DNA of 64,000 bases from a phage: the sequence record NC_104726.1; one strand, given 5' to 3'. The stretch's first letter is position 1. Every line of letters starts with the position of its first letter. The position numbers were made by a program, and so were the translations under genes. Below, piece by piece: positions 2 through 62,263 of this stretch. The notes beneath the pieces were generated by a model. That model worked only from the letters and a program-made list of their open reading frames with translations. It ran no database searches and had not been told where the DNA came from.

Positions 2-1984
2 TTATTTGGTGTTATTCTTTGTATCAATCAGCTCACGGTATTCAATCATAGCAGGGGTGTCCCAATATTTCAAGCCTACATGCTTCAAAAGTGGGTATTT
101 CTTTTCCAATCTTGCAATATAGGCCTTCCCGCATTTAACTCGGTTGGCGATTAAGATTTTGGCACGATGATTTAGCTCACTGTGCTTCCACGTGGTGTTA
201 CCTTCCCACTTGTGGAAATGTGGCCGATAATTTCCAAAATCTTGCATGGGAATAATTTTCCCTAATTGTCTATACAGGCTGTCATAAGAAGTCTCATTTG
301 CTGCACGGGTCAGTAAGAATTTCCAAGCATCCTCTTTCAACAGGTGCTCCACATTCTTCTCTGTAACATACTGGCAATCAGGATCAGTCCAAAGCAGACG
401 AGATTCAGATACCAGATACAGATCTTCACCTTCAGGAATCTGAAGTGCCGCACGTACACGGTCATAATCTTGCTGGTAGATGTTACTCATCTGCCCCAGC
501 CAACAACTTCCACGTTGGATATCACCCTCATAAGGGATGCAGTGTTTAATCTTCCGGAACTCTGCCTTAGTAATACGCTCACGGCGGAAGTAACCATCCT
601 TCTCAAGTTTTTTAACCCAATAGCCTGGCTCATAATGAGTTTTTGTTTCACCTTTCTTCGCAGGTCGGCGAGGGAGCTCTGATAACAATTTGATCGTATC
701 TGCAAAGAACGGGTGGTGTGCCGCCTCTTTAAACTCTTTCACCAGATCAGTGTTCCGGCAATAGAAAACGTTGCGTCCGGTGATCTCGCTTAAGTAGTTA
801 CACTTATTTCGGTTATATTTGCCGTCTCCGTCGTTAAATACTAAATAAACTCCCCGTAAGAATTCTACCTTTCCGTAACAAGCGTAACCTATGCGGCCTT
901 TATTTAAGCCTCCAGCGAAGATCTCACAGTCCCCCAAATTTCCTAGGCCTGTCTCTTCCCATCGTTCCCACATAAAATTCTTACCGAAGATGTGCCCGAA
1001 CACTCCACTGTTCTTCATCATCTCGCGTGCTTCTGAGGATGTTTTTGCTGTCTCCAATTCCGCAACAACTTCTGCCCCACGTAAACGGATACCCTCTTTG
1101 ACAAAAGCCTCCAGGCGATCCTGGAATCCACCGTCGTCATGGCCCTCTATGGTCCATTCGCGCCCAGGGTTAATATTGCAATCCCCAATAGGAATCTCTA
1201 CACAGATTGCAGGGTAGTCTGTCAATGTTTCCAGGAATTTAGATCGGTAAGGTTGGTGACCCATTACCACGCGACTCTCGTCAGAGCTGGTATAACCTTT
1301 CAGGATAGTCATTTTCCAACCATCTTTCTCGTAGCGATACTGCGCCTCAACCTTGTCACCTTCCAGCATCTTACTGGTCATAGGGTCGGTAACGGTAAAC
1401 GGAAACTTTGCATAGCGTAGGCATGACGCAATAGCAGTGCGATATTTCAGAACATGCTCTTTCTTAACATGGAACTGAACTTTTACCCCGTTGTGCTCTT
1501 CAGTCTTCCGCTCACGGATCTTGGTAACGTTTGGGATACCCTGATCCAAGAACAATAGATATGTGCTTTCAACACCGTTGTGCACACTAATCACATCGAA
1601 AGTGTCCACCATGCTGAACGGGGCCTTTGAACCTACACCTTTATTACCTACCAGAGCGTTGCTGTTGCGCTTGGTTGACTCCCCGAGGTTCATGAAAGTG
1701 TTGCGGACCATCTCTTCTGACATACCCAATCCAACGTCCTGCACAAAGAAGTATGGTTCAAGGTCTGTAGGGGAGTGAATGATGATCGGTACATCACCCC
1801 GTCCAGACTCAACATGGGAGTCCACAGCATTGAAGATTGGTTCACGGCAGCTTGCCAGCACCTTATCTTCGTAAATCCCTTTAATGATTAGCCCAAAAGT
1901 CTCTTTGTTCAGAGAAATTGAGCCCCTGGTGACCTCCATATTTCCGGTTAGTACTGCTTTAGTTTCATTACTGTTTACAATCAT
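2..1984 (-). CDS. GHKL (Bergerat-fold) ATPase domain protein, 660 aa; C-terminal ~450 aa uncharacterised
   Basis: ATG at 1982-1984 preceded by AAGGAG; N-terminal motifs QDVGLGMSEEM, GNKGVGSKAPFS and NGVKVQF resemble the ATP-lid boxes of Hsp90/MutL/GyrB-type ATPases. Confidence 0.45.
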   Translation of the reverse strand: MIVNSNETKAVLTGNMEVTRGSISLNKETFGLIIKGIYEDKVLASCREPIFNAVDSHVESGRGDVPIIIHSPTDLEPYFFVQDVGLGMSEEMVRNTFMNLGESTKRNSNALVGNKGVGSKAPFSMVDTFDVISVHNGVESTYLLFLDQGIPNVTKIRERKTEEHNGVKVQFHVKKEHVLKYRTAIASCLRYAKFPFTVTDPMTSKMLEGDKVEAQYRYEKDGWKMTILKGYTSSDESRVVMGHQPYRSKFLETLTDYPAICVEIPIGDCNINPGREWTIEGHDDGGFQDRLEAFVKEGIRLRGAEVVAELETAKTSSEAREMMKNSGVFGHIFGKNFMWERWEETGLGNLGDCEIFAGGLNKGRIGYACYGKVEFLRGVYLVFNDGDGKYNRNKCNYLSEITGRNVFYCRNTDLVKEFKEAAHHPFFADTIKLLSELPRRPAKKGETKTHYEPGYWVKKLEKDGYFRRERITKAEFRKIKHCIPYEGDIQRGSCWLGQMSNIYQQDYDRVRAALQIPEGEDLYLVSESRLLWTDPDCQYVTEKNVEHLLKEDAWKFLLTRAANETSYDSLYRQLGKIIPMQDFGNYRPHFHKWEGNTTWKHSELNHRAKILIANRVKCGKAYIARLEKKYPLLKHVGLKYWDTPAMIEYRELIDTKNNTK

Positions 1985-2481
1985 TTATTGCGCTCCTTGT
2001 AGTAGATATGACTCCCGAATTGAGCTGTCCTCTGCATCTTTTTTGCCCATTTCGGTCGTACTTTGGTTGTATGGTAGTGTGTTGCTCCACCTGTTATGTC
2101 CATAGCCATGTATGCAACATGGTTGTTATTATAGACCTTTAGAAGCATCTTTGCAAGACTTTTAGCGTGATCCCATGAATCTTTTTCTGTCACCTTAAAA
2201 GTTTTGCCGTGGTTTGTCCACGAAAACTGGTTAGGTTGGTAGACAATCTTTCTTATAGTGTCTGGGTATTTGGGGTGAGATTTCCTGTTTAGTGTGGCAA
2301 ACCCTGATGCCAGCATACCCATCGTGCCATCCCCTCTAGCCTCCCTGTAGATATTGCATGCCAGAATGTTTTCCTTAGTATCTGAGGGCTTGCAAGTATG
2401 ATATACTTTTTGTTTTGGTGCTGCAACAACAGGCAGCGATAAAAATGCGCTCAAAATAATAGCAAAGATCTTAATTTTCAC
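1981..2481 (-). CDS. secreted SleB/CwlJ-like cell-wall hydrolase (candidate endolysin)
   Basis: GTG start at 2479-2481 with GGAG upstream; N-terminal signal-like segment MKIKIFAIILSAFLSLPVVAAP; motifs NIYREARGDG, QPNQFSW, GGATHYH, FGSHIYY typical of the SleB-type hydrolase family. Confidence 0.6.
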   Translation of the reverse strand: MKIKIFAIILSAFLSLPVVAAPKQKVYHTCKPSDTKENILACNIYREARGDGTMGMLASGFATLNRKSHPKYPDTIRKIVYQPNQFSWTNHGKTFKVTEKDSWDHAKSLAKMLLKVYNNNHVAYMAMDITGGATHYHTTKVRPKWAKKMQRTAQFGSHIYYKERNK

Positions 2482-4801: not shown

Positions 4802-5059
4802 TCAGTCCACCTCTTCTTCTCGTTGTAGTTCAAGATACCCGTAGGTCTGGACATCTTCAAGGGTGTGGAACTCCCCATCTGCCGCTAATGCACGAACAAC
4901 TTGGCACAAAACCTTATGAGGAACTTCATCCAGACCAAGATTCAGTGCAGGGAACACCTTATCTAAGTCAACAAAATAAACGAACTGGAGCTCACCAGCT
5001 TCAAAAGGTGTATCTTCAATAAACATCTTCTCGGCATTAGTCAAGATCTGCACTTTCAT
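4802..5059 (-). CDS. hypothetical protein (85 aa)
   Basis: ATG 5057-5059 with GAGGAGG upstream. Confidence 0.45.
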   Translation of the reverse strand: MKVQILTNAEKMFIEDTPFEAGELQFVYFVDLDKVFPALNLGLDEVPHKVLCQVVRALAADGEFHTLEDVQTYGYLELQREEEVD

Positions 5060-5415
5060 TATTCTACCTCCTCTTCTTTTTCTTCGGCATTAGTTTCATG
5101 GCTACCCCACTCTGGAGTTTCCACCTCGATAGTAAACTCACGCACTACACGGTAATTGCCCATGAAGCGCTCCACTTCGTCAAGGCTTATGGAGAAGCCA
5201 TTGGCAACCAGGTCTGCAGCACCCTCTTCTACCAGGTAGTCCAGATTGGCTTCCAGAGCTTCAGGTTCAAACCCTGTCAATGCAATCAGATAACCTTTCC
5301 CTTCATCAGGGAGGACAATACATCCCAACTGATTTTCTTTAAAAAGGCAGTGACCATCATTGTTAATTGGGTGTTCATTGCAGTAAATAGCTGCACGATA
5401 AGTAACTTTAGACAT
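5059..5415 (-). CDS. hypothetical protein (~118 aa)
   Basis: Track start at 5436 is a TTG; the ATG at 5413-5415 has AAGGAG 9 nt upstream and is the likelier start. Confidence 0.45.
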   Translation of the reverse strand: MSKVTYRAAIYCNEHPINNDGHCLFKENQLGCIVLPDEGKGYLIALTGFEPEALEANLDYLVEEGAADLVANGFSISLDEVERFMGNYRVVREFTIEVETPEWGSHETNAEEKEEEVE

Positions 5416-5428
5416 CGGTAAGGTCTCC

Positions 5429-5701
5429 TTAGGCAATTGTCATTTTACATTCTTGAAATTTTAACACAAGACGGTGATTGTGTCTAGTGTCTAAAAAGAT
5501 TTTTTCAACCATCAGGCACACGGTATAACCGTCCATCTTGTTGACAACAAAATCTCCAGGATGAGGGAGGATGTCTCCCGGATTGGGGAAACATAGTCCA
5601 CTCAGAAAGGCATCGTCAGTGGTGGACTTAATAGATTTCCACACACTGTCTGCCTGAACATGTTCACCAACGTAATATACATTACCACATGCCTTCATCA
5701 T
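5429..5701 (-). CDS. hypothetical protein (~90 aa)
   Basis: Track start at 5707 is TTG; ATG at 5699-5701 preceded by GAGGG. Confidence 0.4.
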   Translation of the reverse strand: MMKACGNVYYVGEHVQADSVWKSIKSTTDDAFLSGLCFPNPGDILPHPGDFVVNKMDGYTVCLMVEKIFLDTRHNHRLVLKFQECKMTIA

Positions 5702-5703
5702 AG

Positions 5704-6603
5704 TCAAACCCTCGCATAAATTAAACTTGTATCAGTATACTTCTTTAATGGGTAAATATCCTGTCCATAGATGCAATCATTAAACACCTCATCTACCCAA
5801 AGGCTACACTTATATCCCATCATTTCTAAAACACCCATCTCTTCTTCGGTAAACTTATCACCGCTCTTGCAAGATGTCAATACCTCATTCTGAACTCTTG
5901 CTACCTCGAAGCGGTTATTGGCAATATCGCTATTGGCGATCAAATACTCACCTAGAGGGTGTGCGGCATTAAAGATGCACAGTGGACGGCTGACGTAATA
6001 GTCTCCGGGTGTATAAAAATTGTTGAGGTCTTTCACTAGAACATTCTTATCAGTCACTTCATTTATAACATCATGCATATCGCACATCTTTATATGTTTG
6101 AGGATTCCATCCCCCATCACAAAATAAAAACTTGCTGAGACACTTTCGGCATAGATCTTACTAGATCCGTTGTAGTTGTATTTTACTCGGATGCTAACGG
6201 GGGTTTTTCCTGTCGCGTTAGCCATCATCCAAAGAAATGGCAGCTCATACTTCTCCTCTGAGGAAACAAAAGGTGAGGTAGCCAGAGATCGAAAACCTCC
6301 AGAGAAGTTGAAAGTTACAGAACCGCTCCGGCGGTATGATACCGCGTATTCTACTTTTATATCGACGTACCCATTGGAATAGGTGTGTCCTTCATTATCT
6401 AAATATGTCCACTTATCAGACCCAGATACCAATCTACGCTCAATAACCTTCATCACTACAGGAATTAGTGGGTTGGTACAAACCGCTTTTGAAGTAGCTT
6501 TATCATCTAAAGCCTCGTAAATTGCAGAAAGGATGTCCCCAGCTGAAAGATTGGTTGTTATGTCCTGTTTCCACCGCGTACTAAAACTGTTAAGATTTGC
6601 CAT
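5704..6603 (-). CDS. hypothetical protein (299 aa)
   Basis: ATG 6601-6603 with GGAG upstream; first gene of the leftward unit reading out of the divergent promoter region. Confidence 0.5.
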   Translation of the reverse strand: MANLNSFSTRWKQDITTNLSAGDILSAIYEALDDKATSKAVCTNPLIPVVMKVIERRLVSGSDKWTYLDNEGHTYSNGYVDIKVEYAVSYRRSGSVTFNFSGGFRSLATSPFVSSEEKYELPFLWMMANATGKTPVSIRVKYNYNGSSKIYAESVSASFYFVMGDGILKHIKMCDMHDVINEVTDKNVLVKDLNNFYTPGDYYVSRPLCIFNAAHPLGEYLIANSDIANNRFEVARVQNEVLTSCKSGDKFTEEEMGVLEMMGYKCSLWVDEVFNDCIYGQDIYPLKKYTDTSLIYARV

Positions 6604-21114: not shown

Positions 21115-21381
21115 TTAAGCTTTTTGCTCTTCGTTTTTAACGTGGTCAGGGTGCTGGCAACCCCACCGGAGCGAGATGAATTTGCTAATAAGCTGGGGGC
21201 AAGCTACTGAAGGCGCGTATATCCACGCATACCATTCAGGAAGCGTATCATTATACCCCATATGAATAAACACCCCAGTCATCACCGCCATGCCTATGTT
21301 CGACCATAGCTTAGTTTGGGACACTTTCGTAGGGTCATCAGATGCCGCAACCAGTCCCCATAAAAACTGAGTTAGTTTCAT
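21115..21381 (-). CDS. small membrane protein, candidate holin (88 aa)
   Basis: Two predicted hydrophobic helices and a charged C-terminus (HPDHVKNEEQKA); ATG 21379-21381 with AGAGGG upstream. Confidence 0.3.
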   Translation of the reverse strand: MKLTQFLWGLVAASDDPTKVSQTKLWSNIGMAVMTGVFIHMGYNDTLPEWYAWIYAPSVACPQLISKFISLRWGCQHPDHVKNEEQKA

Positions 21382-22525: not shown

Positions 22526-22840
22526 TTACCTTTTACTATGCTCTACGAGCATGTGCAAAATCTTTTGTACATCAGCTCGGATACCGGAGACATCTGTCCT
22601 GACATCCTGCTTAAGGTCGTTAATATCGGCCTCTAGCTTGCTTAACCGGGTCTCGATAACGGAATCAAGTTTATCTTTTGTAACCATACTGTTTTTCACT
22701 AAGATGAGGTCTTTCTCCAGTTCATCCAACCTCTTGGAAATGCCTTTCCATTTGGTGTGCCACTGGTTGAAAGCCCATACACAGATCGGGACAACGGTAC
22801 CCATGCAGATACCGTACAATGCCGCCAAATCCAACTCCAC
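22526..22840 (-). CDS. membrane-anchored coiled-coil protein (104 aa)
   Basis: GTG start with AGGAGG upstream; N-terminal hydrophobic helix then charged heptad-like region. Confidence 0.35.
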   Translation of the reverse strand: MELDLAALYGICMGTVVPICVWAFNQWHTKWKGISKRLDELEKDLILVKNSMVTKDKLDSVIETRLSKLEADINDLKQDVRTDVSGIRADVQKILHMLVEHSKR

Positions 22841-48833: not shown

Positions 48834-50210
48834 TTATTCAGTCATTGCAACAGCATTGGTGGATTTAGAACCAACTTTGTCAAGAAGGACGTTGATCCGG
48901 ATACGAACGAAGTGCAGGGCGTTGTTATACACCAGTTCTACTTTCACACCTTCCAGAACACGAGCAGCTAACTGATTGGTTGGGATTTCTGCACGTTTAG
49001 GAACTGTGATGATCGGGTCGTAGAATACATTATTGTCTTCGTCGAAACCTGTCAGGATCGCACCATTCTTAATGCCAGTGTTGATCGGGTTGTTCATCAG
49101 AACAGACTTGATAACCGGAAGATCATCATCAGACATCTTCATGCTTAAACCCATGTTAGAGCGGCGATGCATGTACCCAAACATAGATTCTTCAGATCTG
49201 AACTTGATCCAGTGTGCAAAACGAATAGCGTCTGCATACTGACCTGAAGCACACTTACCTTCCCAGAAAGCGCCAACACCGTTAATCATTCTGTAGAAGT
49301 TAACGTGGTTTTCCCAAATAGCCATACGCTGAGTTAAAGTCAGAGATGGTGCAATCACACCAGGCATCTGTTTTAAATGCAAGCTGTCGCCATAGGACGG
49401 ATCGTTAGATGCCATAGCGCCTATGATACCACCCTCTGGAAAATCTTTATCAGCACGAGGGTCGTACATGCCAACACTGTCATATTGTGCAGCCATCAGT
49501 TTGGTGGCGATGTTATTATCTTTACCAGTCACATCTTCTGCAGTAGAGTAGACATGCAGTTTGTAGTTAGCCTGAGCCCACTTAGCACATGCTTCAATAT
49601 CTGTGTGGTCTTCATGGCACAGGAAGTACCAATTATCCCGCTCAGCATTGATCTTGTCGATCACGGTAGAAGGTTTTTCAGCATTGGCGATATTTTTGAT
49701 TGTATAGTTACCAGTGTGATAACCAACAGTACAGTCACCAGTGATGGTGATAACACCATCGGCAGCCTCTACAGTGATATCGTCCAAGTTATCATCTGCT
49801 TCGATCTTAGTCTTCATTGACTCTGCAATCTGAGTTGCACCTGTTCCACCAGAGATAGGTACTATCAAAGAAGTATTGTAGCTACCTTTTGCAATAGTCA
49901 TTACGACATCGGTATCGGCTGCGGCAGCAATACCTTTAAAATCTACAGTGGTTTTTTCTTTAGCCTGTCTGCCGATCATAACATATTGTGGAGGGAATAC
50001 ACCACCAAAAGCTTTTGCTGCAAACTCATACGCTGCAGAGCCTTGTGCGAAACCATCTTCCACCATCTGATCCAGCTCAGCATATACGCGAGCTCTCTCA
50101 GTAAAGTTGTTGTGGATAGCGATGAACAGGGGAGTTTCGAAACCTACAGTGTCAATAGGCTGGGTTCCGAGGTTAACTGTAACATCTACCACTTTATCTA
50201 AATATGGCAT
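48834..50210 (-). CDS. tail sheath-like protein (458 aa)
   Basis: Size and position (sheath-tube-chaperone-tape measure order); assignment by context. Confidence 0.5.
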   Translation of the reverse strand: MPYLDKVVDVTVNLGTQPIDTVGFETPLFIAIHNNFTERARVYAELDQMVEDGFAQGSAAYEFAAKAFGGVFPPQYVMIGRQAKEKTTVDFKGIAAAADTDVVMTIAKGSYNTSLIVPISGGTGATQIAESMKTKIEADDNLDDITVEAADGVITITGDCTVGYHTGNYTIKNIANAEKPSTVIDKINAERDNWYFLCHEDHTDIEACAKWAQANYKLHVYSTAEDVTGKDNNIATKLMAAQYDSVGMYDPRADKDFPEGGIIGAMASNDPSYGDSLHLKQMPGVIAPSLTLTQRMAIWENHVNFYRMINGVGAFWEGKCASGQYADAIRFAHWIKFRSEESMFGYMHRRSNMGLSMKMSDDDLPVIKSVLMNNPINTGIKNGAILTGFDEDNNVFYDPIITVPKRAEIPTNQLAARVLEGVKVELVYNNALHFVRIRINVLLDKVGSKSTNAVAMTE

Positions 50211-50282
50211 TTGTTTCCTCTTAATATCTGTGCACGGATATCAAACACGCAGTGTAATCATTACACTACACAATTATAACGA

Positions 50283-50834
50283 TTACTGACCACTGTCTGT
50301 AACCGCTTTACCAGAATTGGGTGAAGGGAAGTGTGTGGTTATTTCAGCCTTAATTCCCTGAAGATCCTCAAAAGCCCCAATGTCTGTTTCAACAAACCTT
50401 ACGTTAAATGTCAGCATTACAGTGGCTCTATTTTCATACGTCTGCTTATTCAACGGCACTCTTTGAGGTGAGATTGTTGAATTGTTAGAGTAGGCAAAGC
50501 ACGATCCTAGAGGGAAATACTTGTCATAAAACATTGGAAGGTTTATTGCTTGCAATACTCTGCTAAGTGCAACATATGCCCTGCCACGATAAGCTGTTAA
50601 CAGATAAGTAACAGTGTAGCTGTGGGTGACGTAAGCATTACCCTCCGCATCTTGAAACTCATTATCTTCCCAAGTGGTGGGATTGATCGCCAAGGTTTGT
50701 AAAAGTACAAACTCACCTTCCGGCTTCGGTATGGTGGAGCTTTCTGCCAGAACTACAGTTCTTCCTGTGGCAACCTTGACGAGCTTAGCAATGGTTGTTT
50801 CAAGATCAGAAAAAACTTTTTCGAAAGCTTCCAT
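50283..50834 (-). CDS. tail completion / neck protein (183 aa)
   Basis: Position between head and sheath genes. Confidence 0.35.
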   Translation of the reverse strand: MEAFEKVFSDLETTIAKLVKVATGRTVVLAESSTIPKPEGEFVLLQTLAINPTTWEDNEFQDAEGNAYVTHSYTVTYLLTAYRGRAYVALSRVLQAINLPMFYDKYFPLGSCFAYSNNSTISPQRVPLNKQTYENRATVMLTFNVRFVETDIGAFEDLQGIKAEITTHFPSPNSGKAVTDSGQ

Positions 50835-51259
50835 CAGTTCTCTCCTTCAGGCTCTTCTACCACAAAAAATCTATATCTCCCACCACCAGAGGTAACATAT
50901 GCATCGCATTTTAAAACGGTAAACCATTTCAAGTCACCACGGATGTCAGGTAGCTGAATTTGGTCAGCCATTGCATATGTTCCTTCGTCCGGACTATACA
51001 ACTTGGTTGAGGAGTAAACTGTAAAAGCCTCGTACTGTCTGTCACCTTCAGGGTTTATTTGAGAGGAGTAATCTTTAGCTGCCCTTCCTGTCAACGGCTG
51101 CACAACACACTCTAAGACATCAAACTCTTCATACTCAAGCTCTAACCCCTCGTTGACAAAAGGACCACCAACTGTTTTGTTATACACTCTGTGGCGACCT
51201 TTGAATGTTTTACGAGGTATCAGTCTGTTCTTTCCTATCAGCTTATAACCTGCTGCCAC
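50834..51259 (-). CDS. neck / head-tail joining protein (141 aa)
   Basis: GTG start with AAGGGGGG upstream; context. Confidence 0.35.
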   Translation of the reverse strand: MAAGYKLIGKNRLIPRKTFKGRHRVYNKTVGGPFVNEGLELEYEEFDVLECVVQPLTGRAAKDYSSQINPEGDRQYEAFTVYSSTKLYSPDEGTYAMADQIQLPDIRGDLKWFTVLKCDAYVTSGGGRYRFFVVEEPEGEN

Positions 51260-51276
51260 TCAACCCCCCTTATTTT

Positions 51277-51735
51277 TTACTGTCCGATTTTAAAGGTTGC
51301 AGATTCAAGCAGCACATCGTAATGCCGCATAGCCTCGTTGAAGCCCTTTTCTTGTGCCCACTGCTCACTAACAGTAGGATTACTAAACTGACCAGCCTCA
51401 ATAACAAACTGGATAGCTTTGGCCCCTGTGTCCCCCATCTGCTTAAGAATAGCCTCTGCACTTGACCCTCTAGCCATAGCTCTCAACAATTTTTCTGTCA
51501 AGGTCTGTAGTTGAGTGCTGTGAAATGCAAAGGCTGTCTCCATGAAATTGCGAACAGGCAGCCCGTTCCAACCGAAGTTGTGAATAGCTGCCAATGTTGC
51601 CATATTTAAGCCTGACGGGTGAGGTTCGTCATAAAAGCCGTAGGTTATTGTTTTACTTTCAAGTCTCACAAGTTCTTTGTAGAAGCGATCTAAACGCTTT
51701 AGGTTGAACCTTGTTTGACATTTAACCTTTAGCAT
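51277..51735 (-). CDS. neck / head-tail connector protein (~152 aa)
   Basis: ATG 51733-51735 with GAGGGA upstream (track start 51747 is a GTG without a ribosome-binding site). Confidence 0.35.
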   Translation of the reverse strand: MLKVKCQTRFNLKRLDRFYKELVRLESKTITYGFYDEPHPSGLNMATLAAIHNFGWNGLPVRNFMETAFAFHSTQLQTLTEKLLRAMARGSSAEAILKQMGDTGAKAIQFVIEAGQFSNPTVSEQWAQEKGFNEAMRHYDVLLESATFKIGQ

Positions 51736-51788
51736 TATATCCCTCACTAATGTATTTTACCACAAAGATACATCAAAAGCAACAATTT

Positions 51789-52409
51789 TTAAAAACTGCG
51801 TTTGCGCCTTGGGTGGCGAGGAGGTTGGTTATTTAGACCACTGATAGGTGTAATACCCTGGACATCGAACGGTCCGTTGCTGTTTTCATTAAATTTAACC
51901 CGAATTCCTTCGTCTACACGAACACCACCAATGATAATCATTCTGCTGTAAGCATCTAGCTCAGAATCTACATAGTCGGGGTGTGCCAGCAGCCAATCAA
52001 GGAAATCTTTCCATTGAGCGTAGGAAGATCCACCACGAATCTCTATAGTCTCATCACCTATTTTTTCCAGACGGGAAGTTATACTTGCATTACCGCTGGA
52101 CACTTCCTGCATCATCAGCCACCGCACAAGTTGCACAAGCACATTGTACTTAAGCAGAGGTAGCTTATCAGGATCTGCCGGATAATTTAGTTTCAACTTC
52201 TCCATGTCAAGGAATGTTTTAATTACCTCATCAGGGAGAGTTTCCTCATCAACATTGCCGAGCAACAACCTCATAATATTAATAAGAGATTGGTCTGGAT
52301 CAGGTTCCGGAAGTACAGGATCTTCTTTTGGTGGTTCTTCTGGGGTATCGACTACACCATCATGGTTAGGCGGTGACGGGATAATCTCTTCATCTTCATA
52401 CCATGCCAT
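51789..52409 (-). CDS. head completion / adaptor protein (~206 aa)
   Basis: ATG 52407-52409; track start at 52466 is a TTG; acidic Pro-rich N-terminus. Confidence 0.35.
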   Translation of the reverse strand: MAWYEDEEIIPSPPNHDGVVDTPEEPPKEDPVLPEPDPDQSLINIMRLLLGNVDEETLPDEVIKTFLDMEKLKLNYPADPDKLPLLKYNVLVQLVRWLMMQEVSSGNASITSRLEKIGDETIEIRGGSSYAQWKDFLDWLLAHPDYVDSELDAYSRMIIIGGVRVDEGIRVKFNENSNGPFDVQGITPISGLNNQPPRHPRRKRSF

Positions 52410-52468
52410 TTGAAAATACCTCGTAAAAATAAAGCCCCATTCCTGATTTGGAAGGGGCCTTAACAAAA

Positions 52469-53296
52469 TTATGCCAGTGCAGCCTCAAAATCTTTCATCA
52501 TATTTTGGAAAGTTTTTGCCTTACTTAAGGTAACACCGTACTCTTTAGCGAAGGTTTGGAGTGCATCTTTTGAACCACTTTTGTCATCTTCGTTGTTAAG
52601 AGCTGCGGCCTGTTTAAGGATTTCATCCTTATTCTCAATGGCTAAAAATGAGGAAGAGGATACAGTCACATCTTGCGGATCTGCTACAGTAACTTCACCG
52701 TCACCACCAGGTTCAGTAGGACCTACAGGCGGCTCCGGCTCTGGTTCAGGCGGTGGAGCTATCGTAGAAACCAGTCCAAGATTTACAACCTGAGAACGTT
52801 TCTTAGGCCACTCAATGGTGAAAGTTTGGGTATCTTCTTCATAAACAATGTTGCATTGCTCATCGTTTATGGTCACTTTTTTAGGCATCCCTACAGGGTC
52901 CCATAGATGCCCCTCTGCCACGGAAACTTGGAAAGCAGCATCTACCTCTTTAAACACTGACGGGGTGAGGGTGATATTGACATCCCCGCTTTGCAGTGTT
53001 AAAGTGCTTTCATCAAGGTTCTCTGTGAAGAACAGAAGAATAACACCCATACGGATAGTTGAAATACCAGTATCAATTGGCAGGCCTGTATGTTTTGCAA
53101 TCTTCTCAAAGAAGTCTACAATCGTTCTACATGGATAGTGAACACTGCCAATAACGAATTCTGTTGGTGGCAGCAGGGCTGATAAACCAACATTGATTTC
53201 TGGGTTATATTGTGCTAAAAATTGATAAAAACTTAACTGATTGTTGAAAACTCTTAATAGCGGATCATACTCAACTGGATATACGGCTCTCTTCAC
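52469..53296 (-). CDS. virion structural protein (275 aa)
   Basis: GTG start with AGGAG upstream; first gene after the capsid terminator; Pro-rich linker PPPEPEPEPP. Confidence 0.4.
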   Translation of the reverse strand: MKRAVYPVEYDPLLRVFNNQLSFYQFLAQYNPEINVGLSALLPPTEFVIGSVHYPCRTIVDFFEKIAKHTGLPIDTGISTIRMGVILLFFTENLDESTLTLQSGDVNITLTPSVFKEVDAAFQVSVAEGHLWDPVGMPKKVTINDEQCNIVYEEDTQTFTIEWPKKRSQVVNLGLVSTIAPPPEPEPEPPVGPTEPGGDGEVTVADPQDVTVSSSSFLAIENKDEILKQAAALNNEDDKSGSKDALQTFAKEYGVTLSKAKTFQNMMKDFEAALA

Positions 53297-53329
53297 GGGA
53301 CACTCCTGTTAAACCCTAATAAATAAAAA

Positions 53330-53353
53330 GGGGAGGGGGAGAACCCCCTCCCC
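53330..53353 (-). terminator. strong intrinsic terminator after the major capsid gene
   Basis: GGGGAGGGGG-AGAA-CCCCCTCCCC hairpin; minus strand continues TTTTTATTTATT. Confidence 0.6.
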
Positions 53354-53377
53354 ATATGGGATGAATCACATCAGTGA

Positions 53378-54388
53378 TTAGTCACCAGCTTTCAGAGTTA
53401 CTTTAACAACCAGCTCTGGGCGGGTGTTAACTGCCAGCATAGAAGTTTCAGATTCAATCTTCTCTTCACGCAGGTATGCAGAGTGTTTATACCACATATA
53501 CAGTTCCTGTGCTGGAGTGTTTGCTTCGTTAACATCGTCTGCCGGAGCAAAGTGCAGTTGGAACATCTGATCAATACCCATCGGCAGAATGCGAGCTTCT
53601 TTCTTAGGAATATTGCCAGAGATATCTTCGATAAAGGTGATACCTTTATGTTCGAACACACGATAAACGCTGTCCTGACCGCCAGCACCCAGACGACGAC
53701 GCAGAGGTTCCTGAGCAGAACCGTAGTAGGTGTATGCCAGTTCTACCAGCGGGTGATGGGTAATAGCACTGAAGAACTCTGGTGAGCACAGGGCTACAAT
53801 ACGATAGCCAGCTGCATTATCGCCAGCTTGCAGCGCGATGTGCAGACGAGCTTCTTCCAGAACCTCCATAGGATCCTGATCTGCTTTTGCAGGGTCGATC
53901 TCAACAGATTTCTGAGACACACCCCATAGAGTGTAGTAATCATACTGGCAGGTAGCGTCACCAGGTGCATAGGATTTACCCAGAATAGCCTGGAACAGAG
54001 CTTTCTCACGCAGTGCTTCATGAGAAACACGGATACGACGAACAACGCGGGTTACTACGTCCTGAACAGTTTTCGGAGCATCAGGAGTGAAGTAACGACG
54101 GAAGTTCTGAACATCTGCGGCAGTGATGCCTTTGTCCAGAGGGAAGAACGGGATGTTCAGGTTTTTAACCTGAGCACGTTCACTACCAACGTAGTTACGC
54201 TCACCACCACGACGGCGTGCCGGAATGTCGGTTACAACTTCATCAACACGCTCGATCTGAGCAATTGTTGAGGTGCCGAGACGAGTTTCGAACAGATCCA
54301 TACCGGTAATCAGGCGAAATTGACGCGGAACAAGGTCCAGGGTAGCACCTAAATCGACAATGCCAAATTCATCTTTACGAGTAATCAT
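53378..54388 (-). CDS. major capsid protein (336 aa)
   Basis: Position after portal/protease/scaffold/decoration genes, followed by a strong terminator. Confidence 0.6.
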   Translation of the reverse strand: MITRKDEFGIVDLGATLDLVPRQFRLITGMDLFETRLGTSTIAQIERVDEVVTDIPARRRGGERNYVGSERAQVKNLNIPFFPLDKGITAADVQNFRRYFTPDAPKTVQDVVTRVVRRIRVSHEALREKALFQAILGKSYAPGDATCQYDYYTLWGVSQKSVEIDPAKADQDPMEVLEEARLHIALQAGDNAAGYRIVALCSPEFFSAITHHPLVELAYTYYGSAQEPLRRRLGAGGQDSVYRVFEHKGITFIEDISGNIPKKEARILPMGIDQMFQLHFAPADDVNEANTPAQELYMWYKHSAYLREEKIESETSMLAVNTRPELVVKVTLKAGD

Positions 54389-54439
54389 TTATTTCTCCAA
54401 AGTAAAACTTAAATATTTTCCCGAACAATTTAGGGCTTA

Positions 54440-54826
54440 TTATTCAACAAGAGTCTGGACGTGAACTTTGTTACCTAAAGCTTCCAACTTATCCAGAATT
54501 CTTTGGTCTGCTTTAGCTCCATCTGCACCTAACAGCATGTCTTTTGCAAAGGTAACACCATGGACGGCAACAACCAGGTTATAGGATTGACCTACTTCTA
54601 AAGGTTTTGCAAGATGAACCGTACCAGCATCTTTGACAAGAGCACGGTCAACAAGAACGCCGTACACATCAGAACCGTCTGCGTTAGCGATGGTACCTGT
54701 TTTTGTTACAACAGTGCCAGCGTGGTGATGCTCTGTCAGTGTTACCTTAATCTCTTTAAAATTGTAGCCAGCATCGCTAGAATCAACTTTGCCGAGCACG
54801 ATATCAGAATATTGAGCGGTAATCAT
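54440..54826 (-). CDS. head decoration protein (128 aa)
   Basis: Small Gly/Val/Ala-rich protein directly upstream of the capsid gene. Confidence 0.4.
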   Translation of the reverse strand: MITAQYSDIVLGKVDSSDAGYNFKEIKVTLTEHHHAGTVVTKTGTIANADGSDVYGVLVDRALVKDAGTVHLAKPLEVGQSYNLVVAVHGVTFAKDMLLGADGAKADQRILDKLEALGNKVHVQTLVE

Positions 54827-57969: not shown

Positions 57970-58774
57970 TTAGATAAAACGCTTGAACATAGAAGGTGAT
58001 GAGATTGATGGAATCACACAAGGAAGTGCTACCTCCTCTTTCTCCAGGAAATTAATCGCAGAAGCTACACAGTCTGCCCAGTCGTCTTTTCTGTTAAATG
58101 TTGATCTTTCCCCGTTGAATTTTTCAAGTTCAGTCAGAAATGCTTCCAGAGTATCAGGATGGAAACTGGATTTTACAATTCTCACCATTCCTTGTTGGGC
58201 AAGATTGGCAAAAGGTGAGAACCTTGTCAGTTTAGATTTGTTGGAAGGCATTGGGTCTTCTTCAACCCTAAACCCTTCGGCGAGCAGGGATCTGGAGGAG
58301 GTTAAGAACTCACTCTTACCTGCCTGCCCTGGGTCCACAGAGAAGACGATTATGCAATCATCACCATCGAACTGCGCCTGTTTCCTGATGATCACATCTC
58401 GTTCACCAGCCTTTTTACAGAACTTGCCTTCCAATCCTGTGGAATACCTCCCGTCATCCACGTTCTCAGGACAATAATCACCTGACAGGTAATAAAAGCC
58501 GTCGCTATCTTTACTTACCTTAATACTGGCAGTAAAGTCAGGAAATTTATTACCGGAAGTTCTCTCGGTTCCTGCCTTATCCCATGCCCTGCAAGATACT
58601 GATCCAAGGGGTACTCTATCGGCATCACGAAGGAAAGATCTTTGAAAATAGTTTGCACCCTCAGGCTTTGCAAACCAGTTACCATGGAGAAGCTGAGCTT
58701 TTTCCAGCTCTGGTAGACCTTCGAGGAAAGCAAGGTATTCTGGGTTGTCTCTCAAACAGACAGGATTATCGAAT
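57970..58774 (-). CDS. terL: terminase large subunit, exon 3 (nuclease domain)
   Basis: AQLLHGNWFAKPEGANYF and KDDWADCVASAINF are terminase nuclease-domain motifs; in-frame TAA at 58777-58779 bounds the 5' side; no ATG at the ORF start. Confidence 0.7.
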
Positions 58775-59753
58775 CCTTATATTCAAAGGTGGTCGCAACA
58801 CCACCCTCCGCACCATTACGTGCCGCTGCATGTTACCATGCAGAGTAGACTATATCACCACCCATCTCAGGGTGCTTCGCTTTTCGAGCGCCATAGGCTT
58901 GCGCCCTACTCCCTCTCGGGATAGTCGTTGAACTACATTACCAATCGTAATTGTTTGAAATATAGGTGTAAGTCTTACGGTCTTTTATTCCTTTAACAAC
59001 ACTAAAACTTACGCCCCACTTCTTAGCTATTTTATTTACACACAAAACCCTATCACTAAGATCCTCGCAGATACCTATTATCTTGTGCTCACTTATCCTA
59101 TTAGAGGTTGGCACTTTTCTAAAGTTAAACTCTTTAGAAATATCTGGGTATACTGAGCCATTCTTTATACCACTTACAAGTGGTTGATTGACACCAAACA
59201 TTTCACAAATGTCTTTTACCCTTGCACCTTGCTCTAACAGTCTACATATTTCAAGAGCAGTGGCATCATCTAGGGACCTGTATTTATTGACATAGTCCTT
59301 TTTAAGTCCCATTTCATGAGCATGATGTGTGTTTTCCTCAGGTGTTGTCCACTCAAGGTTCCATGCGGCGTTATTCAACTTATTGCCATCAAGGTGATTT
59401 ACTTGAGTTTTCACGCTGGGATTATCATTATCAACAAAAGTCATAGCAATCACTCTGTGAACGAGCACTTGGAACTTTTTACCGTCCTCGCACAAAGTTA
59501 CCATAGCATAGCCAGTCTTTTTCTGCACATTAGGATGGAGGAATTTATTAGAATACAGACTGTAAATTCTGCCATCGTATGTAGCACAATAATGATTGTA
59601 GCCTAAAAAGCCTAAATTTTTCATTTCAAACATCTCCCTACTACAGGTTCGGAAGGGTAATTATAGCTGCTGATTGTCCGTTTAGCAATCGGATTTTCCA
59701 GCAATTAACGAAGTTATTCGACGTGCATTTCTGCACGAAGCCACTATCATTTA
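58775..59753 (-). mobile_element. group I-like intron 2 in terL (979 nt), carrying an HNH endonuclease ORF
   Basis: Begins UAAAUGAUAGUGG after exon-terminal U, ends ...UAUAAGG; core-like blocks GTTCAACGACTA (58920-58933) and AGATATAGTCTACTCTG (58841-58856) on the minus strand; boundaries inferred from frame restoration. Confidence 0.55.
58938..59633 (-). CDS. HNH homing endonuclease (intron-encoded), 231 aa
   Basis: Motif VNHLDGNKLNNAAWNLEWTTPEENTHHA; C-terminal helix-turn-helix-like repeats; ATG 59631-59633. Confidence 0.75.
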   Translation of the reverse strand: MFEMKNLGFLGYNHYCATYDGRIYSLYSNKFLHPNVQKKTGYAMVTLCEDGKKFQVLVHRVIAMTFVDNDNPSVKTQVNHLDGNKLNNAAWNLEWTTPEENTHHAHEMGLKKDYVNKYRSLDDATALEICRLLEQGARVKDICEMFGVNQPLVSGIKNGSVYPDISKEFNFRKVPTSNRISEHKIIGICEDLSDRVLCVNKIAKKWGVSFSVVKGIKDRKTYTYISNNYDW

Positions 59754-60073
59754 ATGGTTGCGCCTATGAACGAGAATGACAACGGTCTTGGCTTGATCTC
59801 TACGCCAAGTCCGTTAACCGTGGTGTATTTCTCTATCAACTCTTCTTTAGAATCTCCCCATATAAATTCACCGTCGCGTCGGATAAAATATCTTTTCTTA
59901 CCGCATTTCTCCGGATCTGGATACCCTTCATCGTCCAACCACCATCTAACCAGTTTGGCAAGCATGTGTTCTGAATCTGGGTTACAGCTGATAACCATTC
60001 TTGATGGATACTTTGACTGAGATCGCAGACGAGACATCAGATAGTCTATCTGCTCCCATTCGAATTGTGTCGT
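59754..60073 (-). CDS. terL: terminase large subunit, exon 2
   Basis: Encodes ...EWEQIDYLMSRLRSQSKYPSRMVISCNPDSEH...FIGAT; bounded by in-frame TAG (60074-60076) upstream and TGA (59747-59749) downstream. Confidence 0.6.
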
Positions 60074-60390
60074 CTATGTTCGGGCAAGGTCGCTAGTCTT
60101 GCCCCGCCATTTTTCAGGCAGCTGCATGTCTCCATGCAGACCAGACTATATCTTATAAGCGACAACAACCGCTTACCCTCCCGTTTCGAATCGCTTGATT
60201 CTACGTCTTTCGACTAGTCGTTGAACGTTCATCCTCTCGGATGCTTCGCTGCGGATTATCTAAATTAACACACTGTTACCATACCTTCGATCTCTCTTCG
60301 AAGCCTCTATCATGTTACCATGACAGGTTGGTGGTGTCAATAATAAAGATTTCCCCGCAATTAGGGAGGTTTTACGAGAGCTACAAATTA
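60074..60390 (-). mobile_element. group I-like intron 1 in terL (317 nt), no ORF
   Basis: Starts UAAUUUGUAGCUCUC right after the Walker B codons, ends ...ACAUAG; contains AATTGCGGGGAAA, AATCCGCAGC, GTTCAACGACTAGTC and AAGATATAGTCTGG blocks on the minus strand. Confidence 0.6.
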
Positions 60391-60816
60391 ACCCTCATCG
60401 AAGCAAACCATGGTGTACTCAAGCCCTTGATGGTTAAGCTTATCTTGTACATACTCCATGTGGCAGTATTTTACAACAGCTCCCTTTTTGCTTCTATCCC
60501 ACTTACCAGTGTTAGGATCAAACCGTGGAAAAATGAACTTATGATCCTTCTCTCTGAACTTTGGCTTAATGTTTTCAGGCAGATCACTATAAATAGCTAC
60601 TGCTTTAGGCCATAGTCCACCCTCACCCTCCAACTGTGGAGTTGTTCTTCGGAACATAACCACAGAGCTGTGGGGGTCATCAATAATTTTAAGCGGCATC
60701 AACTGCAAAAGGAACGACTTGCCAGACCCTGCGGCACCGCCGATTACCAAAATATCTGCATCGTTTTCGAGGATCATCTTCTGCTTTTCAGAACACGGTC
60801 CGTAAATCTTAGACAT
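60391..60816 (-). CDS. terL: terminase large subunit, exon 1 (ATPase Walker A/B)
   Basis: Walker A GGAAGSGKS, Walker B MVCFDEG; ATG 60814-60816 with AAAGGAGAGAGG upstream. Confidence 0.75.
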
Positions 60817-61103
60817 TAACCTCTCTCCTTTGGAAACAGTGTTCTAATATAGTCTTGCAAAATGATCAATTTAGCTCTATCATTGCTACAAGACAGATTA
60901 TTATCCCTCATAATGCCAGAATTCACCGCATCTGGCGCACCTTTCTTTAAAGGTATAGCTTTAGCAGGTGGTTTCATGGCACCTTCCGGGGGTTTAACAA
61001 TCAACCTTCCTACATCTGGAGGGTCAATCTTGTATTCTTTCTCAACACTGGTTGCACACCCACATAATAACAAGCACGCAATAAACAGTGTAGCAACTCT
61101 CAT
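60816..61103 (-). CDS. o-spanin (outer-membrane lipoprotein, Rz1-like)
   Basis: Signal/lipobox-like FIACLLLCGC, Pro-rich DPPDV...KPPEG...KPPAKAIP, C-terminal PKERG resembling the lambda Rz1 C-terminus; start overlaps the i-spanin stop. Confidence 0.6.
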   Translation of the reverse strand: MRVATLFIACLLLCGCATSVEKEYKIDPPDVGRLIVKPPEGAMKPPAKAIPLKKGAPDAVNSGIMRDNNLSCSNDRAKLIILQDYIRTLFPKERG

Positions 61104-61498
61104 CGATCCTCCTGATTGATACTCTCATTATAAATATCTATAAGCTGATCAGGGAGTGTTGACTTCTTACCTTCAGGTGATTGGAGGTAGATAATCTGCT
61201 TTTCTTTACCTGCCTTCTCAGCCATGTTTAATTTATCCTGTAGGTCAGAAAGAGATTTTTCAAGGTTTTTAACCTCCTCTGCGTGGCCCATTTTAATTTT
61301 GTCGGCCTGCTTTTGTTGCTGATCAAGGATCCGTTCCCACTTTAACTCTGTTGCTGACACACCCTCTTGGTAGGCATCATTAAGCTTAGAGTTAAACCAA
61401 TACACGGCCCCAAGATAAGCTGTACCTATAGCCGCTGCAAAAACTAAACCTTTTATGATCCCTCTATACCTACTCAGCCATGTTAAACCTGAAATCAT
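61100..61498 (-). CDS. i-spanin (inner-membrane spanin, Rz-like)
   Basis: N-terminal hydrophobic helix then charged coiled-coil periplasmic domain; paired with the downstream lipoprotein gene. Confidence 0.6.
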   Translation of the reverse strand: MISGLTWLSRYRGIIKGLVFAAAIGTAYLGAVYWFNSKLNDAYQEGVSATELKWERILDQQQKQADKIKMGHAEEVKNLEKSLSDLQDKLNMAEKAGKEKQIIYLQSPEGKKSTLPDQLIDIYNESINQEDR

Positions 61499-61522
61499 TT
61501 TAAGGCTCCAGAAACGAAAAAA

Positions 61523-61551
61523 CCCCGCAGCTATACAGCTAACGGGGCGGG
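61523..61551 (-). terminator. GC-rich hairpin with T-run on minus strand
   Basis: CCCGC...GCGGG stem enclosing an AGCT-palindromic loop; minus strand continues TTTTCGTTTCTGG. Confidence 0.4.
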
Positions 61552-61603
61552 TTAAAATTGAGTAACCTAAATAGATCGAAACTAACTAAAAGGAGACTAA
61601 TAC

Positions 61604-61873
61604 TTATCGAGGCACTCGGTGGATGATTCTAACAGTAACTGCATTTTCATTCATCAAGTATGCATCTACATCTCTGTAAATATAAAACTTCTGCTCACTA
61701 TCAACAACACAAGCTACTGCCCCTTCAGAGTTGTCTTCAAAAAAGACCACCACTGCATCGCAGCTGAGTTCATGATATGACTCTCGAAGATTTACAGCCA
61801 GAGGATTGAAATCGTCACGAAAATCTACGGTATGGGTTGGATTTACACGCTCTACAATTTTAAGTGTATACAT
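61604..61873 (-). CDS. hypothetical protein (~89 aa)
   Basis: ATG 61871-61873 with AGGAA upstream; the longer track ORF (to 61963) would overlap tRNA-Pro. Confidence 0.4.
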   Translation of the reverse strand: MYTLKIVERVNPTHTVDFRDDFNPLAVNLRESYHELSCDAVVVFFEDNSEGAVACVVDSEQKFYIYRDVDAYLMNENAVTVRIIHRVPR

Positions 61874-62164: not shown

Positions 62165-62263
62165 GGTGCTAGGTGATGGAATCGAACCACCTATGTATTC
62201 AACGACTACCTCGTCTATTTTCAGGATTAAAAATCCTCGCCCTTGCCAAAGGGCTTACCTAGC
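62165..62263 (-). tRNA. atypical 99-nt tRNA-like gene (anticodon ambiguous)
   Basis: Perfect 7-bp acceptor GCTAGGT/ACCTAGC, D-stem GCCC/GGGC, T-arm GGTGG-TTCGATT-CCATC, but 47 nt between D and T arms and no encoded CCA. Confidence 0.4.

Follow-up and report, generated by a model that had tools for sequence, protein, structure and literature searches.

In a stretch of 64,000 nt from the phage sequence record NC_104726.1 (hereafter the window, meaning the whole of the DNA that was analysed) we find that positions 60816-61498, on the minus strand, very probably encode a two-component spanin of the 'separated' architecture, working within a lysis system whose genes are scattered over the genome. 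An inner membrane component (i-spanin) and a separate outer membrane lipoprotein (o-spanin) lie directly upstream of the large terminase gene terL. This arrangement had been proposed in an earlier interpretation made from the letters alone (the sequence-only reading); the span given there was exact, with the strand left unstated, and the open reading frames (ORFs), the junction sequences and profile matches to PHROGs all bear the assignment out. By its sequence the window comprises the opening 64 kb of an rV5-like coliphage genome (Vequintavirus, myovirus). The genes, their assignment as spanins, the adjacency to terL and the scattering of lysis genes are all already known for rV5 and its relatives. 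The spanin-terL arrangement is thus real but ordinary: its spanins belong to a catalogued family and their position is published. It has little value as a discovery; the practical value of the analysis is a correction, as the 64-kb window taken alone misses a lambda-R-type endolysin just beyond its end and over-credits a SleB-like enzyme (positions of all features are given in Table 1).

The two spanin genes are co-oriented and directly adjacent on one strand. The junction between them reads ...AGGAGGATCGATGA, so that the i-spanin stop and the o-spanin start share ATGA (4 nt); the junction of o-spanin and terL reads ...AGGAGAGAGGTTAATG, where the last A of TAA is the first base of the terL ATG. 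Overlap of the o-spanin stop with the terL start, as claimed earlier, can therefore be read directly from the sequence (TAATG). Each gene has its own Shine-Dalgarno sequence: GGAG for the i-spanin, AGGAGG for the o-spanin and AGGAGAGAGG for terL. Both products matched profiles labeled 'Rz-like spanin', PHROG 4297 for the i-spanin (E=6.6e-49) and PHROG 1267 for the o-spanin (E=2.3e-22); the 132-amino acid (aa) i-spanin matched three spanin PHROGs and no terminase family, and a Pfam scan of both proteins gave no useful family match. A protein with a transmembrane domain (TMD) encoded together with a lipoprotein, the genes overlapping by 4 nt, is the defining spanin signature.

Predicted features of the two proteins fit these roles. 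The i-spanin has a single N-terminal TMD, a hydrophobic segment at about residues 17-35 by hydropathy, preceded by the basic residues R10, R12 and K16; the topology predicted from sequence is N-in/C-out. The remainder of the protein (∼96 residues) is 35% charged and has no cysteine. An AlphaFold (AF2) model, built from the single sequence, has a helix at residues 5-99 (TMD included), a disordered part at 100-114 and a second helix at 115-127, with mean pLDDT (the model's own per-residue confidence score) of 72; together with a published coiled-coil prediction this model indicates a periplasmic domain that is mainly alpha-helical with a linker. A crude heptad count gave no informative coiled-coil signal in the i-spanin. 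The lipoprotein signal expected of the o-spanin is there: LFIACLLLCGC, with lipobox LLCG|C16, fits the PROSITE PS51257-type pattern, and R2 lies in the n-region. Position +2 is Ala, being Q, A, S or E in other genera and never Asp, which predicts sorting to the outer membrane. The mature part has 80 aa, is 11% proline and contains one periplasmic cysteine (C72).

Orthologues were aligned from five genera of Vequintavirinae, the window being compared with PVP-SE1 (Seunavirus), Henunavirus, Certrevirus and Mydovirus. Identity to these orthologues is just 23-40%; still, the lipobox Cys16 is invariant and the o-spanin C-terminal motif NNL...LQxYIRxxF is kept throughout, as are two i-spanin motifs, a juxtamembrane AY..GV..T..KW and a C-terminal KQ..Y....GKK.GLD..VDIYNESLG. 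The i-spanin is present in 195 phage records.

Between 57.5 and 62 kb the window has 97.8-98.2% identity with the genomes of Escherichia phage V5 (rV5) and other members of Vequintavirus, and in the tail-fibre region identity to the best relatives is 96-97%. Coordinates of the window and of rV5 are nearly in register, the offset being some -1 nt at the beginning and about -56 at 60.8 kb. A search for exact proteins brought up eight relatives, to which the last 10.5 kb of the window is 94-98% identical. The o-spanin end coordinate equals the terL start coordinate in all eight, and the overlap is present in the window and rV5 as well. The order tRNA cluster, one or two genes, i-spanin, o-spanin, terL, portal recurs in PVP-SE1, Henunavirus and Mydovirus, with gaps before terL of 100, 135 and 89 nt, respectively. 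Since these genera keep the order with gaps, the 1-nt overlap is a compaction at the level of the genus rather than a conserved requirement. In Certrevirus P7_Pc the pair follows an annotated terminator, and the record is cut just downstream of the pair, terL lying past the cut. In Pakpunavirus and Felixounavirus, whose TerL is more distantly related, the tRNA cluster adjoins terL with no spanins between. Adjacency of the spanin pair to terL, judged from these gene orders, is common to at least Vequintavirinae and phAPEC8.

Much of this is on record. RefSeq labels rV5 gp067 and gp068 'Rz-like spanin'. The supplement of Kongari 2018 (PMC6139136) lists rv5 as 'sep', strand -1, at 61155-61554 and 60871-61159 with a distance of -4, gives its i-spanin as 132 aa with one coiled coil at residues 53-104, and gives the lipobox LLCG for the near-identical o-spanin of JES-2013; rv5 i-spanin and o-spanin families are named in the main text of the same paper. 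According to Buttimer 2020 (PMC7344957), the spanins of rV5, PVP-SE1 and CB7 adjoin terL outside any lysis cassette, and SP6 and VP4 have the same arrangement. In the LL12 genome announcement the endolysin is gp90, the i-spanin gp66, the o-spanin gp65 and terL, split by an intron, gp64, the holin being not identified, and Kropinski 2013 wrote of ORF89 as 'an obvious lysin'.

The rV5 proteins gp068 and gp067 are orthologues of the window's pair (132 and 95 aa, -4 overlap, same place against terL) and differ from it by just a few substitutions; among close relatives the i-spanin is 96-99% identical. Outside the subfamily, phAPEC8 gp121/gp120 (Stephanstirmvirinae) stand in the same order of tRNA cluster, spanin pair, terL, portal; the o-spanin carries the lipobox MTGC and, near its C-terminus, a related motif, LQxYIxTL. 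The phAPEC8 genes differ in being of overlapped architecture (110-nt overlap), with a 9-nt gap to terL, and the second gene is annotated as hypothetical. The Rz/Rz1 equivalents of T7, gp18.5/gp18.7, likewise directly precede terL (gene 19) within the late region. In T7, however, the architecture is embedded (18.7 inside 18.5) and the order is holin, terS, Rz/Rz1, terL, with holin and terS directly upstream of the pair, whereas the window has separate genes, an 89-aa protein upstream and no holin nearby. Thus, of a T7-type block the window holds the spanin directly upstream of terL; terS and a holin upstream of the spanin were not found. The T7 enzyme that degrades the wall, gp3.5, is encoded far from the T7 spanins.

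Lambda Rz/Rz1 follow the same plan as the window's pair, a type II inner membrane protein with a helical periplasmic domain and a proline-rich outer membrane lipoprotein, but their genes are embedded and form part of a contiguous holin-endolysin-spanin cassette (S-R-Rz/Rz1) that this phage type does not have: the neighbours of the spanin genes are the 89-aa protein, tRNAs and terL, with no contiguous holin or endolysin. T4 PseT.3/PseT.2 resemble the window's pair in their separated architecture and in an i-spanin with no cysteine, and T4 also encodes rIIA/rIIB. The T4 spanin pair is not near holin t or endolysin e, its lysis genes being scattered (PMC6139136, Fig. 8 legend), and the T-even-type phages RB14 and S16 are listed as 'sep, -4' like rv5 (PMC6139136 supplement). 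Unlike the window's pair, the T4 pair is not beside terL, and PseT.2 needs two periplasmic cysteines where the window's o-spanin has one; the two pairs have no detectable sequence similarity and belong to different families in Kongari's tables.

By the paradigms of lambda Rz/Rz1 and T4 PseT.3/PseT.2, the i-spanin would be inserted N-in/C-out in the inner membrane, and the o-spanin would be lipidated at Cys16 and taken by Lol to the outer membrane, on its inner leaflet. The C-terminal regions would bind across the periplasm, threaded through the murein; upon removal of the murein by an endolysin the complexes would collapse, inner and outer membranes would fuse and virions would be released. 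The block shared with terL would make the spanins part of the late transcript for packaging and morphogenesis; early synthesis would be harmless, since spanins are inert until the wall is degraded. Degradation of murein would be supplied from elsewhere, by a cytoplasmic lambda-R-type transglycosylase encoded just outside the window, which would need a holin, and possibly by the Sec-exported SleB-like hydrolase at 1981-2481.

The scattering itself agrees with what the sequence-only reading had claimed. Nothing with a muralytic or holin signature was found between the portal gene and the tRNA cluster, so no endolysin or holin adjoins the spanins; in rV5 the genes labeled 'endolysin' are at 1980-2480 and 71575-72045, the spanins at 60872-61554, and no holin is annotated. 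Nor was a canonical lysis cassette found elsewhere: the R-type endolysin gene stands alone among DNA-metabolism genes. The same reading had named the SleB-like protein as the best endolysin candidate, and this holds within the 64-kb window; overall it is not supported as stated, because rV5 and all eight relatives carry the lambda-R-type endolysin. The latter, in rV5, is a protein of 156 aa encoded at 71575-72045, at a distance of ∼10.7 kb from the spanin genes and ∼7.5 kb outside the window. We take the catalytic Glu of the lambda R-type enzyme to lie in its SEGTD motif. The rV5 enzyme aligns end to end with the lambda R lysozyme (PDB 1am7, E=9e-57), SEGTD included. Seven of the relatives have it at 97-99% identity and one has a divergent allele at 52%. 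In the window's phage the enzyme is expected rather than seen, because it is present in the relatives and its locus lies beyond the window's end; for the same reason, a window edge that precedes this locus, the wider lysis model of the sequence-only reading was limited. LysECP26, which shares 98% identity with the rV5 enzyme and 62% with lambda R, has been purified and lyses permeabilised Gram-negative cells (PMC9728275), and the R-type gene is named as lysin both by Kropinski 2013 and in the LL12 announcement.

The 68-aa protein encoded after the R-type gene has one N-terminal hydrophobic segment and is hypothetical in the curated BASEL annotation. The divergent R-type allele (165 aa, 52% identical) occurs in some rV5-like genomes (stretches 887-2200 and 4888-6201 of two relatives' sequences, outside the window); an extra 253-aa gene beside it corresponds to an annotated (putative) homing endonuclease in phage DrSchubert, and the neighbouring 68-aa gene is still 100% identical. 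These observations suggest that the endolysin locus underwent allele replacement.

The SleB-like protein is nevertheless a genuine second endolysin candidate by its sequence features, though not clearly the best one, given the lambda-R-type endolysin of rV5 and relatives and the lytic activity of LysECP26. It matched PF07486 (Hydrolase_2) at 2.1e-19, above the cut-off. The catalytic Glu of SleB lies, we assume, within its YGESRG motif. YREARG of the phage protein aligns with YGESRG of SleB (PDB 4f55/4fet). The signal peptide noted earlier is of Sec type; orthologues from other genera have hydrophobic N-terminal leaders ending ...PVLA|K or ...PVVA|Q, which we read as Sec signals. Relatives of the protein were found in 1265 phage records; homologues are reported for all genera of Vequintavirinae, and that of CB7 is reported to be toxic in Escherichia coli (PMC7344957). 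The stop codon of the SleB-like gene overlaps the start of rIIA (ATGA; window 2-1984, minus strand), with rIIB next on the circular map; the secreted hydrolase is thus in one unit with the rII genes.

One could argue, in line with the sequence-only reading, that the SleB-like protein is the main lysis enzyme, acting with the spanins and a membrane protein of the fibre cluster, while the lambda-R-like enzyme is accessory. The Hydrolase_2 domain and the YREARG/YGESRG alignment speak for this possibility, as do the occurrence of homologues in all Vequintavirinae genera, the signal peptide and the toxicity in E. coli (PMC7344957), and the second enzyme varies by genus, being lambda-R here, a T5-type peptidase in CB7, M15C in Septuagintavirus and GH19 in KPP-1. 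In 4MG and Ro1, moreover, a two-TMD protein of 51-57 aa is encoded directly downstream of the SleB-like gene and matches a class II holin candidate reported for Certrevirus (PMC7344957). Such a partner was not found in the genus of the window, where the SleB-like stop overlaps rIIA directly and the tblastn search described below was negative. The SleB-like gene, furthermore, belongs to the rIIA/rIIB unit and has a sigma-70-type promoter upstream; this suggests expression before the late genes, a timing that would fit poorly with a lysin secreted without regulation. Muralytic activity has been shown by experiment for the R-type enzyme of one rV5-like phage, the enzyme is called lysin in published annotations, and the fibre-cluster proteins matched no holin family. 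On balance we consider a leading role of the SleB-like protein somewhat unlikely. Also unlikely is an evolutionary extension of the same idea, in which wall degradation in the ancestral Vequintavirinae was carried out by the subfamily-wide, Sec-exported SleB-like hydrolase, paired with a two-TMD protein in most genera, and the genus-specific cytoplasmic endolysins are later additions. If true, it would account for the failure to find a canonical holin in this group, and the spanin-terL block would be the sole invariant late element of lysis.

The holin candidates put forward earlier, membrane proteins within the fibre cluster, found no support in family searches. PHROGs and Pfam scans of ten small membrane proteins from the window and rV5, among them the two fibre-cluster proteins, ORF129 and six other small TMD proteins, matched no holin family; for the 104-aa protein all Pfam matches were sub-threshold, e.g. 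XhlA at E=0.016. The published holin guess, rV5 ORF129 (Kropinski 2013), is outside the window. The 88-aa membrane protein was seen in 373 phage records, those of phAPEC8-like and Aeromonas phages included, with ∼50% identity across Vequintavirinae genera; two records tag the region matching it as 'structural protein'. The two-TMD protein that follows the SleB-like gene has a basic tail and measures 57 aa in 4MG (2036-2209) and 51 aa in Raoultella phage Ro1 (2029-2197), where it is unannotated; tblastn with it in the window and in rV5 stretches (rV5 50001-54558 left out) gave no significant match.

With respect to expression of the spanin-terL block, a terminator-like hairpin stands between the 89-aa gene and the spanin genes, and a terminator is annotated at the matching place in Certrevirus P7_Pc. 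The hairpin was not flagged by a simple terminator scan, and the fold of the 71-nt region around it (-18 kcal/mol for the whole region) is no better than that of shuffled sequence (z=-1.5). The 105-nt intergenic region 5' of the i-spanin gene (within 61499-61630, minus strand) does not vary at all among 10 genomes whose flanking sequence differs by 2-6%. This conservation is not exceptional, since invariant runs of 106-133 bases occur three other times in 3.4 kb; variation within these 3.4 kb is highest in the spanin genes, where several bins have 15-17 variable columns per 100 nt versus mostly 1-10 elsewhere.

The TAATG overlap could be functional, with TerL synthesis coupled to translation of the o-spanin, so as to fix a ratio of spanin to terminase or to tie packaging to lysis. 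The overlap is indeed kept in the window, in rV5 and in all eight relatives, and in the minimum-energy fold a part of the terL Shine-Dalgarno sequence is paired with an upstream UUUCC. We find such a role quite unlikely: terL carries a strong Shine-Dalgarno sequence of its own (AGGAGAGAGG), the fold at the o-spanin/terL junction is no better than shuffles (z=-1.56), and gene order is kept with gaps of 89-135 nt in other genera and 9 nt in phAPEC8.

Several observations weigh against the spanin reading or parts of it. A disulfide-linked spanin dimer has been described as near-universal (PMC6139136), while in the window the i-spanin has no cysteine, and beyond the rV5 genus the o-spanin does not keep C72, which is replaced by Ala in PVP-SE1, Henunavirus and Mydovirus; such a dimer may therefore be absent or different here. 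Between the upstream hairpin and the i-spanin start there is no sigma-70-like promoter and no TGGTAAAATA late-type motif. RNA folds at both junctions are no better than those of shuffled sequence (z = -1.6 and 0.0), so that co-transcription with terL and translational coupling are suggested by gene layout and overlaps alone. Finally, the published accounts of the rV5-type spanin family that were consulted contain no genetic or other experimental test.

Could the pair be something other than a spanin, e.g. another envelope system (superinfection exclusion, a Cor-like lipoprotein), or the 132-aa protein a small terminase? In favour of this, besides the point on functional tests just made, no terS is annotated beside terL in this phage group, and T7 has its terS just upstream of the spanin. 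We judge it very improbable all the same: an N-terminal transmembrane helix is clear in the 132-aa protein, which matches three spanin PHROGs and zero terminase families, the lipobox of its partner is invariant, TMD protein, lipoprotein and 4-nt overlap together define a spanin, and the conserved C-terminal motifs of both proteins persist together across subfamilies. Small terminase identity was considered both for the 132-aa protein and for the upstream 89-aa protein and was rejected on the grounds of the TMD, the spanin PHROG matches and the lack of a terminase match.

Table 1. Positions in the window of the spanin genes, terL and other features discussed in the text
Feature	Position	Strand	Description
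i-spanin gene	61100..61498	-	132-aa ORF; PHROG 4297; corresponds to rV5 gp068
o-spanin gene	60816..61103	-	95-aa lipoprotein precursor; PHROG 1267; corresponds to rV5 gp067
Terminator-like hairpin + U6	61517..61548	-	11-bp stem then UUUUUU; stops 9 nt short of the i-spanin Shine-Dalgarno sequence GGAG
89-aa protein, upstream neighbour	61604-61873	-	No Pfam match; PHROG 8729 of unknown function; no TMD
terL exon 1	60391..60816	-	aa 1-142, Walker A; Pfam Terminase_6N, PHROG 9526; 100% identity to intron-less TerL
terL group I intron 1	60071..60390	-	Rfam RF00028 at 60122-60400, 84 bits, E=6e-21
terL exon 2	59753..60070	-	aa 143-248; 100% identity over 106 aa; PHROG 979
terL intron 2	58774..59752	-	Two weak Rfam group I matches flanking the HNH ORF
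HNH homing endonuclease ORF in intron 2	58938-59633	-	Pfam HNH_3, PHROG 59
terL exon 3	57970..58773	-	aa 249-515, nuclease domain; 99.6% identity over 267 aa; Pfam Terminase_6C
SleB-like cell-wall hydrolase	1981..2481	-	166 aa; Sec signal; Pfam Hydrolase_2; PHROG 938 'endolysin'
88-aa weakly hydrophobic membrane protein	21115..21381	-	Tail-fibre cluster; PHROG 1322 'membrane protein'
104-aa protein	22526..22840	-	Fibre cluster; one N-terminal TMD (hydropathy), charged, probably helical tail; PHROG 5345 of unknown function

Downstream of the spanins, terL is split by two group I introns, as already known for rV5, in whose annotation the gene is joined from three pieces. Boundaries of exons and introns were set by alignment to the intron-less 515-aa TerL of a relative. 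The N-terminal terL ORF, Walker A included, was called at 60388..60816 (minus strand), and its start is supported by the alignment from residue 1 of both the intron-less 515-aa TerL and the Seunavirus TerL. The number of terL introns among the eight relatives is 0, 1 or 2; one of them has an Endonuclease_7-type gene instead.

Some 18-24 records of the MG0656xx series, titled 'Campylobacter phage' and giving C. jejuni as host, share 97-98% identity with rV5-like coliphages, and their host labels look doubtful. In the tRNA cluster, a tRNA-like gene of 99 nt at 62165-62263 (minus strand), to which ARAGORN assigned a 4-base anticodon 'atcc', scored 35.5 bits against the Rfam tRNA family; it has no annotation in the rV5 RefSeq record, and phage DrSchubert has a 97-nt tRNA-Lys at an apparently matching position of the cluster.

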